From a virus (lineage: Duplodnaviria > Caudoviricetes): DNA of 64,000 bases. Positions 20,192 to 64,000 of the stretch are shown one piece after another. The DNA lies in the IMG/VR virus record IMGVR_UViG_3300013936_000027, positions 956 through 64,955 of that record; one strand, written 5' to 3'. The notes beneath the pieces are model-generated. The model was not told where the DNA came from. It was given only the letters and a program-made list of their open reading frames with translations, and ran no database searches. The position numbers were made by a program, and so were the translations under genes. Each line of letters begins with the position of its first letter. Positions within the stretch are counted from its first letter, which is position 1.

Positions 20192-21082
20192 TTAATTTTT
20201 TTTGTGCTGATTACATTTTTGTTTCTCTCTTAATTTTTGCACATTTTTTCTTATACATTTTTTTCGATAAATCTCATAACATTCAAGACATCTATTCGTT
20301 TGATTATCTTTTGATGCTATCTCTACGGGTTTTCCGCAATCAACGCAGAAGATTGTTTTTTCTGTTTGATTTTCATTATTCCTATGTTTTTTGCAGTATT
20401 TTTGGATTTTAGCTTTAGAATTCGGCTTCTCCAATACTCCGCATTCCGCACATCGAAAAAACTTTTCTCCGCAATAATTGAGATATTCAAAACCGAGTTC
20501 TCGGAAATCGGATATGAAAAGTTCCTCCTCATCATTATCATCAACAAATGTTATTCTGTAATTAAGATTGCCATTCTTTTTTGGAAACTCAACCAAACCA
20601 AGAATATATAATTTGTTTAGTTTTATACTTTGCTCAATTGCGGAACACGGTATATGAGCCAACTTAAAAACTTCGGGGGGGGCTATGTTTACCCAACTAT
20701 TGTTATTTGGTTTCTTTAAATTGTTTAGCTTTGCAAGACATAAAGATGTGAAAGCGAGTTTTTCTAAGGTTTTGTTTTTTATGTTTTTTATTGTGTTAAT
20801 TTCGGATTTTGTAATTTTTACGCCTGATATTTCAAACAACTGTTCGTTGGCGGCTTTATTAATCACCGTATCAATTGCACTAAGCCATCGTTCTTCATTC
20901 AGTTCATAGCGAGGGTAGTGTTTTTGTAAGTAATGTAAAATGTCGGTTTTGACCTGCCTCTTTTTCATACTTTGCTGTGCGTAATATTTTGCTAAAATAC
21001 CAATCACTTGATATGGATTTTTATCTGTTATTCCTTGTTCTAAACATTTTTGAGCATATGCTTTCTCATTCAAAATAATCAT
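20192..21082 (-). CDS. Hypothetical protein coupled to the RNA polymerase gene, with C-terminal CxxC motifs
   Basis: ATG overlaps the RNAP stop codon; CAECG, CVDCG and CLEC motifs; contains an in-frame C8 run (plus-strand G8 at 20675-20682). Confidence 0.6.
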   Translation of the reverse strand: MIILNEKAYAQKCLEQGITDKNPYQVIGILAKYYAQQSMKKRQVKTDILHYLQKHYPRYELNEERWLSAIDTVINKAANEQLFEISGVKITKSEINTIKNIKNKTLEKLAFTSLCLAKLNNLKKPNNNSWVNIAPPEVFKLAHIPCSAIEQSIKLNKLYILGLVEFPKKNGNLNYRITFVDDNDEEELFISDFRELGFEYLNYCGEKFFRCAECGVLEKPNSKAKIQKYCKKHRNNENQTEKTIFCVDCGKPVEIASKDNQTNRCLECYEIYRKKCIRKNVQKLREKQKCNQHKKN

Positions 21083-53805: not shown

Positions 53806-54734
53806 AGATTGTAAAAAGATTATGTTTCCTAATATTGAGATGAATGATGAATGCAACTTAGAACATGCGGTAGAAGTTCTTCAGGGGTATGGAATTCGAG
53901 TTGAAGATGATAATGCAAATTATCGTTCAGTCTGCGATGTAATGGTAGATATTTGTCGTACATTTCGATTTTGGCGCGAATTAGGCATAAGAGAAGATGA
54001 ATTTAAATTGCGTAAATATATTATTCTTAAGTCTCTTGTCGGAGTAAAATATATGAATGAATTATATTAAGCTATTTTTTACATATAATTCGTGCAATAC
54101 AAAGAAAATAACCATAACTAAAATGTAAAAAGCCTTTTAAAAAATATTTTTGAAAAACCTCTTGACATGGTAATAAGGATATGATAATATATTGTTGTTG
54201 TCAACCGTAATATTTATTTTTTATACTTTATAAATAATTTAGAATAATACCAAAATGAAAGGATGAAGAGTATGTTTACAGTCTTTAATCAAAGATTAGC
54301 CGGATTTCTGATGTTAAAGGGATTTAAGTTGATTTCCATTGAACCGAATCGAAACATTCAAAATTTCAATATATTTTCTTTTGAAAAATCAGATAAGCTT
54401 GAAAAAGCAATCCATCAGTATGAAGAAATAAAGAAGTTTTTTATATAATGGAATATAAATAAAATATCTTTTTTATTAACAATGGGATGGTATTAGATGA
54501 AGATTTTGGCTGCGTATTGTTTAAAATATGAGCGTACTGAATATGGAAAAATAATAAAAAAACAATATGAACAAAAGAAAATAAAGGAAAAACGCAATAA
54601 TATGAGACATTTGACAACAAGAAATGATGGAATATCTAATACAGTGACTACCGTACAAAAAAGATAATTATATTCTTATAAATATTAAGCTGTAATAAAA
54701 AATTTCATTATAAAAAAGATGGAGGTATAATGAA

Positions 54735-55595
54735 ATGCAAAATAAAAAAGATACTTTAAAATCCAATAGCTATGAGCTTGTAAATTTCTGCGAATTCGAC
54801 AAATACGCCGAGCAGAGTTATTGTGCAATACATGGAGTTGATAAAAGTTTAAATTTAGGAGATATTACGAAGGTGAACGAAAAAGAAATCTCAGATTTTG
54901 ATATGATGACTTGGGGATTTCCATGTACTGATATTAGCTCGGCAGGTTTACAAAAAGGTTTTGTCGATGATGAGGGCAACAAAACAAGAAGCGGTTTATA
55001 TTATGATGGATTGAGAATCTTAAAAGAGAAAAAGCCTAAGATTAGTATTATCGAAAATGTTAAGAATTTAACCAGTAAAAAATTTAAAGATATATTTAAA
55101 ATGGTTTTATTAGATTTAGATGAAGCTGGTTACAATACATATTGGCAAGTGCTTAATTCTAAAGATTTTGGGGTTCCTCAAAACAGAGAAAGAGTATTCA
55201 TCATTTCTATACGAAAAGACATAGACAATGGCAAATTTAAGTTCCCGACTCCATTTGAGAGTGATATACGATTAAAAGACATTCTTGAAGATGAAGTGGA
55301 TGAGAAATATTATATTAACACTCCTACTGCACAAAAATTGATTGATGAACTTATGGACTCTGGAAAATTAGATAAGGAAATCTCTAACACTGTAAGAACA
55401 GGGGGGGCGAGGAAGTGTAGACAGACATCAGTGGGATGTGATTCAGATTTAATTAAGACAGGAATCTTTTCTCAACAGTGTCAAAAGTTTGATAAAGAAA
55501 TTGACATTGCAAATACCTTACTTGCCAGAGATTATAAAGGATTTGGAAATCAGGGCATGAATGGAGTGATAACTCAAAATGATAAAAAGTGCTGA
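54735..55595 (+). CDS. C5-cytosine DNA methyltransferase, N-terminal part (motifs II-VIII, no motif I)
   Basis: FCEFD, GDI, GFPC, ENV and PQNRERVF present; the FxGxG motif is absent from this ORF. Confidence 0.9.
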   Translation: MQNKKDTLKSNSYELVNFCEFDKYAEQSYCAIHGVDKSLNLGDITKVNEKEISDFDMMTWGFPCTDISSAGLQKGFVDDEGNKTRSGLYYDGLRILKEKKPKISIIENVKNLTSKKFKDIFKMVLLDLDEAGYNTYWQVLNSKDFGVPQNRERVFIISIRKDIDNGKFKFPTPFESDIRLKDILEDEVDEKYYINTPTAQKLIDELMDSGKLDKEISNTVRTGGARKCRQTSVGCDSDLIKTGIFSQQCQKFDKEIDIANTLLARDYKGFGNQGMNGVITQNDKKC

Positions 55596-56299
55596 AAGTG
55601 CTCTCATCCAACCAAGAGATAGAGATTATAAACAAAAGAGTTCTGTAAGACAAGTCCATTCTTTGAGAACGGGAGGGCAGACAATGATTTTAATCAAAAA
55701 AGAGGATGGCGTATATGAAGAAAAATAATGCGATAGTTTTAGGTAGGTTGCTTCCCAACTCTGGCAAGATGCATCAAAATCAGGAAGTGTATTTTGCTGG
55801 GGGAGCGAAATATGTACAATTAAAGCATGTCATTACAAAGACCCACCTAAGATATTGATATATTCAAATGTGGCTAAAAATGATAATGAAAAGTAAGGAA
55901 ATAATTAGACTAATACACCGAGGCACAGGGGGGGGCAACAGGGGTGGATTTATTCGACAGACGGACTGATATCAACAATCCCTGCTTCCACTTATAAAGA
56001 CCCTCCAAAAATTGTTGTACAAGATAAAAAGAGAAGTTGTAATGAACAAAATAATTCAAATAGGAAATATAAAAGATGATACAAGTAATTTTTCTAATCC
56101 TCAAATAGGTAGGGTATATTCAATAGAAGGAATCGCACCTACTATTAGCACTTGCCAAGGGGGGGGGAGAGAACCAAAGGTGATTATAAATAATATGAAA
56201 TTTGTGTGTGAAAGCAGAACAGATGAAGGTTTACGAACATTTAAGGATGGAGTTATAGGAACTATCCGAACTATTGATGCGGGGGGGATAAAAGAGTGA
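55579..56299 (+). other. Chain of short TRD-like modules with poly-G tracts
   Basis: Mini-ORFs starting at 55579, 55715, 55880 and 56042; G tracts at 55799, 55928, 56159 and 56281. Confidence 0.7.
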
Positions 56300-56634
56300 T
56301 TGAAGAGAAATTTAATAATGGTTATCGTATTAGGAAGTTGACACCAAAAGAATGTTGGAGACTGATGGCTTTTTCTGATGAGGATTTTGAAAAGGCAAAA
56401 ACAGCGTTAAATGATAATTTCTATAAAGGAAAAGACAAATCGTCAAGTCAGCTATATAAACAAGCAGGAAATTCCATTGTTGTAGATGTGCTTTATTACA
56501 TATTCAAAGAACTATATGAAGCAATGCCTTATTTGTTTGATGATTTAAAAGTCAGCAGCTATTTTTCAGGTATCGGCGCATTTGAAAGCGCATTAGATAG
56601 ATTATATGAAGATATAAACTCCGAAGTAATATAA
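56296..56634 (+). CDS. C5-MTase second part (motifs IX, X, then motif I)
   Basis: RKLTPKECWRLM, YKQAGNSIVV, then YFSGIGAFE. Confidence 0.9.
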   Translation: MIEEKFNNGYRIRKLTPKECWRLMAFSDEDFEKAKTALNDNFYKGKDKSSSQLYKQAGNSIVVDVLYYIFKELYEAMPYLFDDLKVSSYFSGIGAFESALDRLYEDINSEVI

Positions 56635-57311
56635 GAGCAGACCAAAATACAATAGGAACTCTTACATTGAACATTGGAAATAGTTGTTTCCGGAACGCTT
56701 ATAAATTGATAGAGCGTTAATTTTTAAAGCGTTATAAATAAGACTGAATAATACTTTTTGGTATAATACAAATGGCTATGTATACTTTGTTTCTAAAAAT
56801 ACATTAGGAATTTTTCAAAAAAAAGGAGGCAACTGATTTACTCTGAAATGGTTGGACTGTTGATATTATTGCTCATATTTTTAAAGGTACAGGGTGAAAT
56901 ATGAAAATAAAAAGATACAAATTGAGAGATGATGTCACAAAAGACGAATTACTTCAATGTGGATTCAAGGAAGGCGGCACTTGGATTAAGAAAGATGCAA
57001 AAATATTCTTGACACAGTGTTTCGATTATAAGAAAGCACATTTTGAGTTTTCAATTAACATTGCTTTTGATTCTAACATTGGTGACTGGAATGATTTTGA
57101 TAATGTCTTAGTTATTGATGAGAATTTTTGTCAACCATACACGCCTTTCTACGGTAAAAATTACGGAAAGGAAATAAATGATTTTGCTGCCCTTGAATAT
57201 GTAATTCAAAAATATAATGAATTTATGAGTGGGTTAAGTTTTTTAATGGAAAGATAAATTGAAACAATTTAACAAAAGCAAAGCAATAAAAAATAGCGAG
57301 GTGGACACAGA

Positions 57312-58594: not shown

Positions 58595-59342
58595 ATGATT
58601 AAGAATTACCCCCCCCCCGCTGAATCTGATATGTGGTGAGTGTATTGAACAACTAAAATACATCGAAGATGAAAGTATAGATTTAATAGTGACAGACCCA
58701 CCTTATAAAGTTACATCAAGAGGGAATGCGGGCAATAGTGGTGGAATGCTACAAAAAGATATAAACAAAAAAGGTCAAGTATTTATTTACAATAATATAG
58801 ATTGTTTGGAATATGCACCTGAATTTTATAGGATTTTAAAGGATGGAAGTCATTGTTATGTGATGACTAACCATACTAATCTCATACATATGCTTAATAC
58901 TTTTACTGATTTGCGGACAGATGAGGAGAAGAATAAGGGTATTAAACCTTATGGCTTTCACTTTATTAAATCGTTAATATGGGATAAACGAAATAAAATA
59001 ATGGGGCAATATTATATGTCGCAATTTGAATATATTTTGTTTTTCCGTAAAGGCAGAGGTGTTAAAATAAACAACTGTGGAACGAGTGACATACTTTCTA
59101 TTCCAAATGTCAAAACGAAGTATGTTGATGGCAGCAATTTACATGATACTGAAAAGCCAGTTGCTCTTATGAATATCCTTATTGCTAACTCATCAAAAGA
59201 AAATGATACGGTTTTAGACCCGTTCATGGGAATCGGAAGCACAGGAATTGCATGTAAAACCCTCGGTCGAAAGTTTATTGGTATCGAGATTGATAATCAT
59301 TATTATGAAATCGCCAAGCAGCGGATTCTTGATATAAATTAA
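58595..59342 (+). CDS. Beta-class amino-DNA methyltransferase (DPPY), out of frame at a C10 tract (58609-58618)
   Basis: TDPPY, HDTEKP and DPFMGIGST motifs; C9 or C12 gives MIKNYPPPLNLICGECIEQLK... in frame. Confidence 0.85.
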
Positions 59343-63515: not shown

Positions 63516-64000
63516 ATGAAAATAACAAACCAATGGATTAACGGGGATTGTTTAAAGGAATTGAAGAAACTTCCTGATGAAAGTGTTCATCTGATTATTA
63601 CATCCCCCCCCTATCACAATTTAAGAGTGTATAGCAATGACCCATGTGATTTATCAAATTGCGAAACATATGATGAATATTATTATCTTCTTGGATTGGT
63701 AATTGCAGAATGTAAAAGGGTTCTTATCCCCGGTGGAAAATTTGTAATTCAATATGAAGATTACAATTATACTCTTGGTCGAGACGGCAAAAATGGGCAG
63801 GAGAGCTTGACTGGTGAAATTAACAGTCTATTTTTAAATAACAATTTTTCTCTATGGACTAAAGCGTTTTGGCGCAAATATTCTGCGCAGAGAGCAATGC
63901 TTGCACAGGGGAATCTCTACTATAGGAATATGAAAGCCAGAGATACGATTCTCGCAGCCAATGTAGGCTTTGTATATGTGTATAAAAAAGAAGGTAATTG
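63516..64000 (+). CDS. Beta-class amino-DNA methyltransferase (SPPY), partial; in-frame C8 tract
   Basis: GDCLKELKKLPDESVHLIITSPPY; TCC CCC CCC TAT at 63603-63614; runs off the window. Confidence 0.85.
   Translation, partial: MKITNQWINGDCLKELKKLPDESVHLIITSPPYHNLRVYSNDPCDLSNCETYDEYYYLLGLVIAECKRVLIPGGKFVIQYEDYNYTLGRDGKNGQESLTGEINSLFLNNNFSLWTKAFWRKYSAQRAMLAQGNLYYRNMKARDTILAANVGFVYVYKKEGN

Follow-up and report, generated by a model that had tools for sequence, protein, structure and literature searches.

The 64,000-nucleotide stretch of Caudoviricetes DNA analysed here (hereafter the window) comes from a large phage infecting gut/rumen Clostridia and carries, in place of one gene, a string of short overlapping ORFs that would together specify a phage anti-restriction C5 DNA methyltransferase. 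We consider it likely that this is a split, circularly permuted enzyme whose target-recognition (TRD) modules are switched by poly-G tracts in a combinatorial manner. By this means the phage population can probably turn single methylation specificities on and off, hedging against host restriction.

Catalytic core of the methyltransferase

The core is divided between two ORFs of the plus strand, on which all the features described below are also located. The alpha ORF (54735-55595, 286 amino acids), with GGAGG 9 nt 5' of its ATG, corresponds to positions 17-216 of the PF00145 profile (E 7e-54) and carries motifs II-VIII, followed by TRD M1 (out of frame at present), TRD M2 (in frame) and a stop. 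The beta ORF (56296-56634, 112 amino acids, GTG start; pN/pS 0.18) corresponds to profile positions 270-323 (E 3e-11) and carries motifs IX and X, with motif I (FSGIGAFE) near its C-terminus, after the PF00145 match. Both matches exceed the Pfam cut-off. The beta GTG overlaps the TGA of the preceding M6+M7 ORF (GTGA), and a G7 run lies 9 nt upstream. Motifs IV (PC), VI (ENV), VIII (QNRER), IX, X and I (FxGxG) identify a C5 cytosine DNA methyltransferase, and their distribution over two ORFs with the cut after motif VIII is that of M.AquI.

BLASTP alignment with L039, a relative with motifs in the canonical order, placed alpha residues 13-185 on L039 residues 25-197 (69% identity), beta residues 5-73 on residues 304-363 (motifs IX-X) and beta residues 84-102 on residues 2-20 (motif I). 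Because the N-terminus of L039 aligns to the tail of the last ORF of the window, these alignments establish a core permuted between motifs I and II, in the order II-VIII, TRDs, IX, X, I. The initial annotation, made from the letters of the window alone, had placed the core in two ORFs with motif I moved to the C-terminus, and the PF00145 and BLASTP matches confirm both the ORFs and the motif order. An HhaI-like fold is suggested by the relatives: L006 matches M.HhaI with E 1e-37, and M.HhaI is the top Foldseek match (E 5e-16) of a model of the continuous relative L011, whose core has pLDDT 85-96, the C-terminal motif-I strand and helix included. When a continuous relative was modelled with AF2, pLDDT stayed below 50 over the TRD region, too low for module packing to be read.

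TRD modules

Reading of the frames revealed seven TRD modules between motifs VIII and IX, where about six had been counted initially. They stand in tandem at this position, as in multispecific phage C5 enzymes, and homologous modules are present in continuous relatives and in P0001, a 399-amino acid PF00145 protein. Further TRDs are placed ahead of motif II and beyond motif I. A Pfam search of the small module ORFs gave no match, and a promoter and terminator scan gave nothing above shuffles.

Upstream of alpha, a stand-alone TRD minigene (54497-54667, 56 amino acids) ends early at an A6 run near 54654; with A5 the frame would continue for about 10 more residues, as in the consensus. A module of this type is found between motifs VIII and IX in P0001, and homologues follow motif I in group A loci, the continuous class of relatives described below. 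Within alpha, the C-terminal half of M1 (55408-55452) is in the +1 frame relative to the rest of the ORF and ends at a TAA (55450-55452), and M2 (55453-55592), which is in frame with alpha at present, has a pN/pS of 0.18 in frame 0. M2-like modules occur within continuous group A enzymes.

The minigene M3 (55579-55728, 49 amino acids) is free of homopolymers and starts at an ATG that overlaps the 3' end of alpha; weak homologues exist in L173 and L174. M4 (55715-55896) is broken at a G5 run (55799-55803), with its N-terminal half in frame 2 and its C-terminal half in frame 1; intact M4 ORFs of 62-83 amino acids with their own Met are found in L013, L016, L018 and L021, the tract being G6 in L013 and L021. 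M5 (55880-56079) is broken at a G8 run (55928-55935) and would be restored by G9. The M6+M7 ORF (56042-56299) encodes 85 amino acids from its ATG, with a G9 run (56159-56167) in frame and a G7 run at 56281-56287. The M6-type module aligns to the TRD of M.HhaI, the G tract falling at its Gly-rich recognition loop, and in most modules a conserved Gly-Gly(-Gly) is encoded by the G run. At 55579, 55715, 55880 and 56042, an ATG shortly precedes the stop of the upstream frame, as had been noticed initially at all four positions, and the Shine-Dalgarno sequences of the internal minigenes are weak or absent.

Poly-G tracts and reading frames

The five G tracts of the initial annotation (G7 at 55401, G5 at 55799, G8 at 55928, G9 at 56159 and G7 at 56281) were all found at the positions and lengths given there, with the reservation that long runs in short-read assemblies may be miscounted by one. 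The frame reading also agrees that G5 and G8 are out of frame, each being one G short, that G9 is in frame, and that the last G7 is one G short of fusing the last module to motifs IX-X-I. The more general statement that G tracts set the frame holds at the tracts but not at the junctions between minigenes, where the shifts are not tract-controlled.

Tract 1 (G7, 55401-55407) had been described as a toggle between two C-termini. It does switch, but in three ways, and the three-way design is conserved: at G6 or G9, M1 is intact and followed by a stop; at G7, M1 is garbled into a stop-free linker that leads into M2; and at G8 a stop follows at once. Each of these states occurs somewhere in a set of 27 related loci, and four loci that are mutually 96-99.7% identical (L069, L072, L077 and L081) have states B, C, A and B, respectively. 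Tract 1 clearly selects one of two TRDs and does not act as an on/off device. At the M4 tract, G6 instead of G5 restores the frame. The M6 tract is G5, G6 or G7 in relatives and is ON only at lengths divisible by 3. In four of five close relatives, the tract that would fuse M7 to beta is in the OFF state, and there either beta needs putative reinitiation at its GTG or the enzyme is simply off.

In this genome of 34% GC, the G runs are built from GGG codons. The window contains eight G/C runs of at least 7, against about 0.5 expected by an estimate from base composition; four are within 900 bp of the methyltransferase locus. Two more are in the two amino-methyltransferase genes of the phage, which carry C10 and C8 runs. 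The location of the G tracts of the locus inside ORFs, where tract length sets the frame, is that of a simple-sequence-repeat contingency locus.

As metagenome contigs may miscount long G runs, the frame breaks might be sequencing or assembly artefacts at homopolymers. We regard this as scarcely credible: the window contains 567 A or T runs of at least 5 and yet the neighbouring genes are intact and tightly packed, by which a general homopolymer error was rejected; the all-frame stops, start codons and frame-specific selection described below are independent of tract counts; and the same design recurs in independent assemblies, cultured isolates included.

Related loci

Comparison with 80 related phage loci revealed two classes. 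In about 45 loci, the permuted enzyme is encoded by a single uninterrupted ORF that has 2-5 TRDs in tandem and no G tract of at least 6. About 27 others, divergent and from many samples, keep the multi-ORF layout, with overlapping short ORFs as in the window and G tracts of G5-G12, of which 1-8 per locus are of at least 6. Homologs are thus neither always continuous nor invariant in their tracts, a combination which, according to the initial annotation, would have refuted switching: the continuous ones have no G tracts, and those of the second class have tracts that vary. Runs of at least 7 G or C number 47 in 44 kb of methyltransferase loci; the phage DNA that flanks them has 3 over 160 kb, and group A loci have 1 over 267 kb.

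Tract length varies between genomes that are otherwise nearly the same. Over 2888 bp, L063 and L071 have no substitution and differ only by G11 versus G6. All internal indels but one among L069, L072, L077 and L081 are in G tracts, and all but one among L249, L250 and L257 (cultured Oscillospiraceae and a MAG) are in G/C runs. The tract-length polymorphism among near-identical genomes that characterizes contingency loci is therefore seen in sister lineages of the window rather than in its own tracts. Viral, metagenome and GTDB scans yielded no near-identical relative of the window (best 83% at the amino acid level), and a distant-mode blastn search of GenBank phages yielded just short matches (3-6% coverage) to other phage methyltransferases. 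Related loci are present in the cultured strains Dysosmobacter segnis BX15 and Hominicoprocola fusiformis CLA-AA-H269, which opens the idea to direct testing.

Selection on the modules

Every module has a pN/pS of 0.17-0.27 in its proper frame, including M1, M5 and the C-terminal half of M4, which are out of frame at present; values in other frames range from 0.37 to more than 6, with a single one below 0.8. The C-terminal half of M1 has 0.18 in its own frame versus 2.0 in the frame currently translated. The halves of M4 have 0.17-0.20, each in its own frame, M5 has 0.22-0.27 in its proper frames (against L021), and M6 and M7 have 0.24 and 0.17. No module contains an in-frame nonsense codon in its proper frame.

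These values bear on the possibility that a once-continuous multispecific methyltransferase is decaying here as a pseudogene, its homopolymers having broken first. Such decay would fit the nine frame breaks within 900 bp, each of them at a homopolymer, as well as the loss of about 84 nt after motif I and the A6 truncation of the upstream module, but it is very improbable: module pN/pS is as low as that of the catalytic core, with the proper frames free of nonsense codons, about 27 divergent loci share the layout, and the G runs, absent from continuous relatives, are a gain (GGG codons in a 34% GC genome). Decay was disfavoured on the pN/pS values, the relatives showing no neutral pattern of substitution. 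Judged from the sequence comparisons, purifying selection on modules that are now out of frame argues for a working contingency system and not for decay or sequencing error. Such a system is further favoured because all three states of tract 1 occur, including within one group of 96-99.7% identity.

Frameshifting and chain architecture

In every one of 27 loci (the window and 26 related ones), the segments between tracts are closed by stops in each of the three frames. The possibility that some combination of tract lengths yields a single chain was rejected on this ground, no open path leading through the inter-tract segments of any of the 27 loci. The enzyme must therefore consist of at least two chains, with free TRD minigenes, and does not have all TRDs and the core in one polypeptide as multispecific phage C5 enzymes do.

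Downstream of beta lies the stranded C-terminal part of a further TRD, M8 (56626-56718), a remnant after the deletion of about 84 nt, with a pN/pS of 0.23 in frame 0. The beta ORF of relatives leads into M8 via a -1 frameshift site and a G tract. Programmed -1 frameshifting calls for a heptamer of the form X_XXY_YYZ in frame, 5-8 nt of spacer, a stable hairpin beyond it and an open frame that goes on at -1, and all of these are found in the relatives: A_AAT_TTT is the heptamer in each of 20 aligned loci, and an 11-bp hairpin has 92% of cells paired, versus 33-52% in slid controls, and 8 pairs with compensatory changes. In the window, the deletion after motif I has removed both the frameshift site and the G tract. 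Of the two orphan modules initially thought to flank the locus, the upstream one is thus a real TRD module cut by an A6 run, whereas the downstream one is a deletion remnant. Programmed frameshifting at the internal junctions was rejected, as these contain no X_XXY_YYZ heptamers or hairpins and the direction of the shift from M2 to M4 differs between L013 (+1) and L021 (-1).

The same observations make it quite unlikely that the G tracts are recoding sites at which, together with A5 runs at the junctions, transcriptional slippage or ribosomal frameshifting produces a full-length single chain. It is true that each junction of the window has an A5 run, that one A fewer restores continuity, and that the G9-G12 runs of some relatives are long enough for polymerase slippage. 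However, given the stops in all frames of each inter-tract segment, the window would need at least nine separate recoding events; the direction of the junction shift is not conserved, the junctions have no slippery signals, and tract lengths vary heritably between genomes.

Another interpretation, unlikely but less so than recoding, is that the tracts switch the whole enzyme ON or OFF (alpha and beta being made or not) and that the minigenes are silent TRD cassettes that recombination at conserved module borders transfers into alpha or beta. Modules do appear and disappear as clean cassette indels between relatives: among close relatives, M3 occurs in the window only and M5 only in the window and L021, and L028 is without M3-M5. 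The window is moreover a mosaic, with a group-A-like N-domain (72% identity to L003 versus 53% to L021) and TRDs and beta that are 83% identical to the L021 contig, and the weak ribosome-binding sites of the internal minigenes would also suit silent cassettes. Such cassettes, though, need no G tracts of their own, no overlapping starts and no inter-tract stops, the stops being present in all 27 loci and the other features in the loci inspected, and tract 1 picks one TRD of two instead of switching on or off.

Discussion

Taken together, the existence of two classes of loci, the tract variation, the purifying selection and the three states of tract 1 support the combinatorial, phase-variable methyltransferase proposed initially. 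In the model that we favour, the fold has undergone circular permutation and its termini now lie between motifs I and II, alpha supplying motifs II-VIII and beta motifs IX-X-I, and TRD modules of about 40 amino acids, of the type found in tandem in multispecific phage enzymes, are arranged around and between them. Slipped-strand mispairing during replication would alter the length of the G runs and hence the reading frame. Tract 1 would pick M1, M2 or no TRD at the alpha C-terminus, the M4 and M5 tracts would turn these minigenes on or off, and the M6 and M7 tracts would determine whether those TRDs are fused to beta. The nominal combinations in the window (3x2x2x2x2 = 48) would be spread over the phage population, and the survivors would be the phages whose methylation fits the restriction-modification and methylation-dependent restriction systems of the host.

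Several steps of this model are deduced from sequence and by analogy. The alpha and beta chains presumably assemble, as do those of M.AquI and of engineered split permutants, each TRD would confer its own target sequence, switching would proceed at the rates of contingency loci, changes in tract state would change the methylated motifs, and the benefit would be evasion of restriction. The least certain step is that minigene products which are never fused would work in trans. That TRDs are tethered at three topological positions (behind motif VIII, ahead of motif IX and, by frameshifting, behind motif I) suggests that the core is indifferent to the route by which they are delivered. It is conceivable, though we hold it only tentatively, that the minigene products are exchangeable specificity subunits that dock non-covalently in trans on the two-chain permuted core, each independently phase-variable, so that one core could write dozens of methylomes; HsdS of Type I enzymes offers a likeness. 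We know of no free-standing TRD subunit for any C5 methyltransferase, and the locus may be the first case.

The C5 methyltransferases of Bacillus phages (M.SPRI, M.Phi3TI, M.Rho11sI and that of SPbeta), studied in the Trautner laboratory, carry tandem TRDs between motifs VIII and IX. Each TRD is thought to recognize one target, and the enzymes are presumed to protect the phage against many host restriction enzymes. Like the locus of the window, they are phage-borne, lack a partner endonuclease and have short tandem TRDs, and the continuous group A relatives look like their direct analogues. However, they are single chains in canonical order without repeat tracts, whereas the enzyme of the window is permuted and split, and its TRDs, which form ORFs of their own or are fused in alternative ways, each carry a hypermutable G run. 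The comparison drawn initially with these multispecific enzymes and with the two-chain M.AquI is apt as regards the mode of working.

According to PMC5944983, M.AquI is a naturally two-chain C5 methyltransferase, engineered enzymes (split or permuted M.MpeI and M.SssI) are active when permuted near the N-terminus, and the fragments of a bisected N-terminally permuted enzyme complement each other. M.AquI, unlike the locus of the window, has no repeat tracts and a single specificity. Type H enzymes (M.BssHII, M.Alw26I, M2.Eco31I, M.Esp3I and M2.BsaI) have their N-terminus in the variable region, with motifs IX-X before I-VIII, whereas the termini in the window are between motifs I and II. Natural C5 permutations in a 2018 REBASE survey are limited to the variable region (PMC5944983); a natural permutation between motifs I and II, as found here, is not among the sites that it gives.

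In phasevarions (Type III mod, Type I hsdM/hsdS, Campylobacter Type IIG), slippage of repeat tracts switches methyltransferase expression or specificity (PMC4889913, PMC7383803). The likeness resides in poly-G tracts inside methyltransferase reading frames of an AT-rich genome. Phasevarions, however, rely on N6-adenine enzymes of cells, have a single tract in each gene and serve gene regulation or defence, whereas the window has a phage C5 enzyme with one tract per recognition module, combinatorial and presumably serving counter-defence. Among phages, poly-G tracts in the receptor-binding proteins of Fletchervirus are reportedly contingency loci (Sorensen 2021). Contingency loci of T2/T4 are described in bioRxiv 10.1101/2025.10.21.683753, which also cites a poly-G tract in a Bordetella phage methylase gene. 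These loci use hypermutable homopolymers for bet-hedging, as the window would, but they affect adsorption or other single genes, and none is an array of switchable TRDs in a methyltransferase. A literature search found no published description of such a locus.

The TRD modules of about 40 amino acids constitute a natural library for the engineering of sequence-specific cytosine methylation. Provided that the switches do what the model proposes, 2 kb of DNA gives the phage a counter-defence by which methylome diversity is made combinatorially. It would then be the phage-side mirror of bacterial phasevarions and phase-variable restriction systems, and would help to explain how large phages of gut/rumen Clostridia cope with the strain-level diversity of restriction-modification and methylation-dependent restriction.

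Organization of the locus and circular permutation of its catalytic core

The window covers nearly the whole of a linear viral contig from IMG/VR (64,955 bp, GC 34%) for which CheckV estimates a completeness of 42%, and which encodes portal, terminase and other phage genes. The methyltransferase locus lies at 54497-56718 on the plus strand, and three-frame translation with an ORF list reproduced each coordinate given for it in the initial annotation. Its first ORF (alpha, 54735-55595, plus strand, 286 aa) matches positions 17-216 of the Pfam profile PF00145. Its last ORF (beta, 56296-56634, plus strand, 112 aa) matches positions 270-323, with motif I following close to its C-terminal end. The locus thus contains a member of PF00145. 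Between motifs VIII and IX, tandem modules resembling target-recognition modules (TRDs) are present as annotated, but they number seven (M1 to M7) rather than about six; they occupy changing frames, with five G runs among them (G7, G5, G8, G9 and G7). Outside this region are one upstream module forming its own ORF (54497-54667, plus strand) and a partial downstream module, M8 (56626-56718, plus strand).

A close relative with canonical motif order, L039, served as reference for the permutation. By BLASTP, the first ORF begins at the equivalent of L039 residue 25, while the last spans residues 304-363 and then the equivalent of residues 2-20. The motif order is therefore II-VIII, variable region, IX, X and I. 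The locus falls outside the known natural permuted class of C5 methyltransferases.

Two classes of relatives

A scan of viral contigs with the N-terminal domain as query returned 80 loci, which were classified by script and form a clean dichotomy. In group A, about 45 of the 80, a single permuted ORF of 400-620 aa runs uninterrupted and holds 2-5 tandem TRD modules, and G runs of 6 or more are absent; in one member (L006), three of the five modules are homologous to M4, M2 and M6 of the window. In group B (about 27 loci) the first ORF is just 245-335 aa, motifs IX and I lie in a separate ORF 300-2400 nt downstream, and each locus has one to eight G runs of 6-12. Relatives are therefore not always one continuous ORF with invariant tracts, the pattern that would have spoken against the first reading.

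The window itself is a recombinant between the two lineages. Its TRD array and beta place it in group B, with 83% identity to contig 3300011008_000049. The catalytic domain at its N-terminus is group A-like (identity of 72% with L003 versus 53% with L021), and the window is missing a zinc-ribbon-like insertion present in most other loci. In L013-L028 and most other relatives this insertion is about 45 aa long, has two CxxC pairs and follows the catalytic PC motif, between motifs IV and VI of the first ORF; the N-terminal domain of the window is instead GFPC-type. Scans of viral, metagenome and GTDB sequences found no near-identical relative of the window.

Group B loci are also carried by Hominicoprocola fusiformis CLA-AA-H269 (L249, on a 164-kb contig), Dysosmobacter segnis BX15 (L250), Clostridiaceae bacterium strain 9 (L248) and the Ruminococcus MAG RUG13152 (L247). 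Since such loci sit in cultured genomes of these taxa, their likely host group is Oscillospiraceae/Clostridia, and the cultured strains are usable for experiments. Three viral contigs (L045, L046 and L047) encode C5 methyltransferases in canonical order, with motif I N-terminal, whose ORFs likewise end at the first TRD, directly past a G8/G9 run, with more G runs downstream; the poly-G device thus extends beyond the permuted clade.

Absence of a single-chain reading

Every G run of 5 or more was treated as a free frame switch, and an open path from alpha to motif I was sought. No such path was found in the window or in 26 other group B loci: all inter-tract segments carry stops in all three frames, which excludes a one-chain enzyme through any combination of tract lengths (27/27 loci). 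Because these stops are found everywhere, we conclude that the division into several ORFs is built into the locus by design. Each module ORF extends a few to about 35 nt past the start codon of the module that follows, and in four loci M4 is intact with its own Met, as an ORF of 62-83 aa. Programmed frameshifting at the internal junctions would be another way of joining modules; it is unlikely, since these junctions contain no X_XXY_YYZ heptamers and the frame step from M2 to M4 is +1 in L013 and -1 in L021. All four internal junctions contain an A5 run, so poly-A may also matter at this locus.

Enrichment and hypermutability of G tracts

The window contains eight G/C runs of 7 or more, against about 0.5 estimated from base composition; four are in this locus and two in the two PF01555 genes, so that methyltransferase genes hold 6/8. 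General homopolymer error does not account for the breaks: A or T runs of at least 5 number 567 in the window, and its other genes are still intact and tightly packed. Across the 19 group B loci whose flanks were complete, 47 G/C runs of 7+ occur in 44 kb of methyltransferase locus versus 3 in 160 kb of neighbouring phage DNA, and group A loci have 1 in 267 kb.

The PF01555 genes, both with poly-C runs, encode N6/N4 amino-methyltransferases. In the first (58596-59342), a C10 at 58609, just after the ATG at 58596, puts the DPPY enzyme out of frame and C9 would restore it; in the second (63516-63998), a C8 at 63604 is in frame. The remaining runs are a G8 (20675-20682) within a minus-strand ORF of unknown function (20192-21082, phrog_30716) and a C8 (26265-26272) in a stretch where no ORF reaches 60 aa.

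The G tracts are hypermutable. Over 2,888 bp, L063 and L071 have no substitution between them, and the sole difference is G11 versus G6 at the first tract. Among L069, L072, L077 and L081 (96-99.7% identical), all internal indels but one are in four G tracts, each seen in two or three lengths. The L249 and L250 loci are 98.4% identical with internal indels confined to G or C runs, and a Clostridia MAG differs from both by one additional 3-nt indel outside runs; a C9 versus C6 inside the first ORF of L249 and L250 is an in-frame difference. At the positions of the window's tracts, four related loci (L013, L020, L021 and L028) have runs of other lengths. The M4 tract, G5 in the window, is an in-frame G6 in L013 and L021; the M6 tract is in frame as G9 in the window and as G6 in L020, and out of frame, as G5 or G7, in the others.

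Tract 1 (G7 at 55401) had been described as toggling between two C-termini. The alternative M1 and M2 ends were recovered, together with a third state, which makes the tract a three-way switch. In all group B loci the three frames past the first tract have the same content: the remainder of M1 up to a stop (state A), about 14 linker residues free of stops that lead into M2 and its stop (state B), or a stop after three or four codons (state C). Across 27 loci, about 7 were in state A, about 10 in B and about 8 in C, and the rest fit none; the window is in state B, and the near-identical L069, L072, L077 and L081 show B, C, A and B, respectively.

Frame-specific selection on TRD modules

Nei-Gojobori pN/pS was calculated for each segment in all three frames, comparing the window with the four relatives closest to it. 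Every module gave 0.17-0.27 in its TRD-encoding frame, as compared with 0.18-0.21 for the catalytic core, and the other frames gave 0.8 to above 6, except one at 0.37. M4 and M5, both interrupted in the window, gave the same frame-specific low values in each half, as did the M8 remnant. Decay of the modules is ruled out by values equal to those of the core and by the absence of nonsense codons in the selected frames, and the modules thus appear functional. In the segment after tract 1, pN/pS is 0.18 in the selected frame and 2.0 in the frame translated in 4/5 genomes; selection keeps the usually unread frame, which argues that the tract often returns it to phase.

Flanking modules and a predicted -1 frameshift signal

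The upstream orphan proved to be a true TRD module, as the same type occurs among five tandem TRDs between motifs VIII and IX of P0001, a 399-aa PF00145 protein. It ends early in the window (at 54650-54667) because of an A6 run; A5 would add about 10 residues and a consensus-like end. Its group A homologues lie downstream of motif I, in a -1-frame ORF that has no ATG and overlaps the 3' end of the main gene. These ORFs (55-174 aa) encode further TRD modules. Of 30 distinct group A loci, about 20 have an invariant in-frame heptamer, A_AAT_TTT, some 24 nt ahead of the main stop, and six nucleotides past it an 11-bp hairpin (among them L005, L006, L007, L050, L052, L055, L056, L059, L062, L066, L070, L073, L076, L078-L080 and L082). 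In the alignment 92% of cells are paired, versus 33-52% with the 3' arm slid; 8 of the 11 pairs have changes on both sides, and none of 500 shuffles matched the covariation score. Heptamer and hairpin make up a canonical -1 frameshift signal, by which further TRDs are appended after motif I.

Group B loci L020, L028 and L014 keep both elements, and a G run sits at the stem's 3' foot. M8 is in the -1 frame in L020 and L028; L013 has lost the heptamer and has M8 in frame. In the window, a deletion of ~84 nt near 56624 took out both of these elements together with the tract and the initial part of M8. The downstream orphan (about 56630-56720) is thus a stranded remnant of M8.

Proposed working and comparison with known systems

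The architecture, tract polymorphism and frame-specific selection documented here bear out the first reading in its architecture and genetics; the function it predicted is one that we infer. Alpha, made of motifs II-VIII and ending in M1, in M2 or in neither, and beta, made of IX-X-I and optionally fused to M6 and M7, would assemble into an active enzyme, much as the split core of M.AquI assembles. In the AF2 model of a continuous relative, pLDDT is below 50 across the TRD region. In the multispecific enzymes of Bacillus phages every TRD adds one target sequence, and by analogy each TRD here would contribute one. Trautner's multispecific enzymes are single polypeptides, from which this locus differs.

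In its present state the window would yield alpha joined to M2, two free peptides (M3 and M6+M7), and M4 and M5 in truncated form. The beta core would have to start at GTG 56296, which overlaps the upstream TGA as GTGA; a G7 run 9 nt upstream could act as a Shine-Dalgarno mimic. Minigenes (short free-standing TRD ORFs) that are never fused may act in trans, the main rival being that they serve as a recombination reservoir.

Contingency loci in phages are already known, in genes for receptor binding among others. In the full-text literature searched, neither per-TRD switches nor TRD minigenes are described; one preprint (bioRxiv 10.1101/2025.10.21.683753) mentions a methylase gene of a Bordetella phage that contains a poly-G tract. 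The locus resembles a cross between the multispecific C5 methyltransferases of phages and the simple-repeat contingency loci of bacteria, in which replication slippage at the G runs would reshuffle the TRD set every burst.
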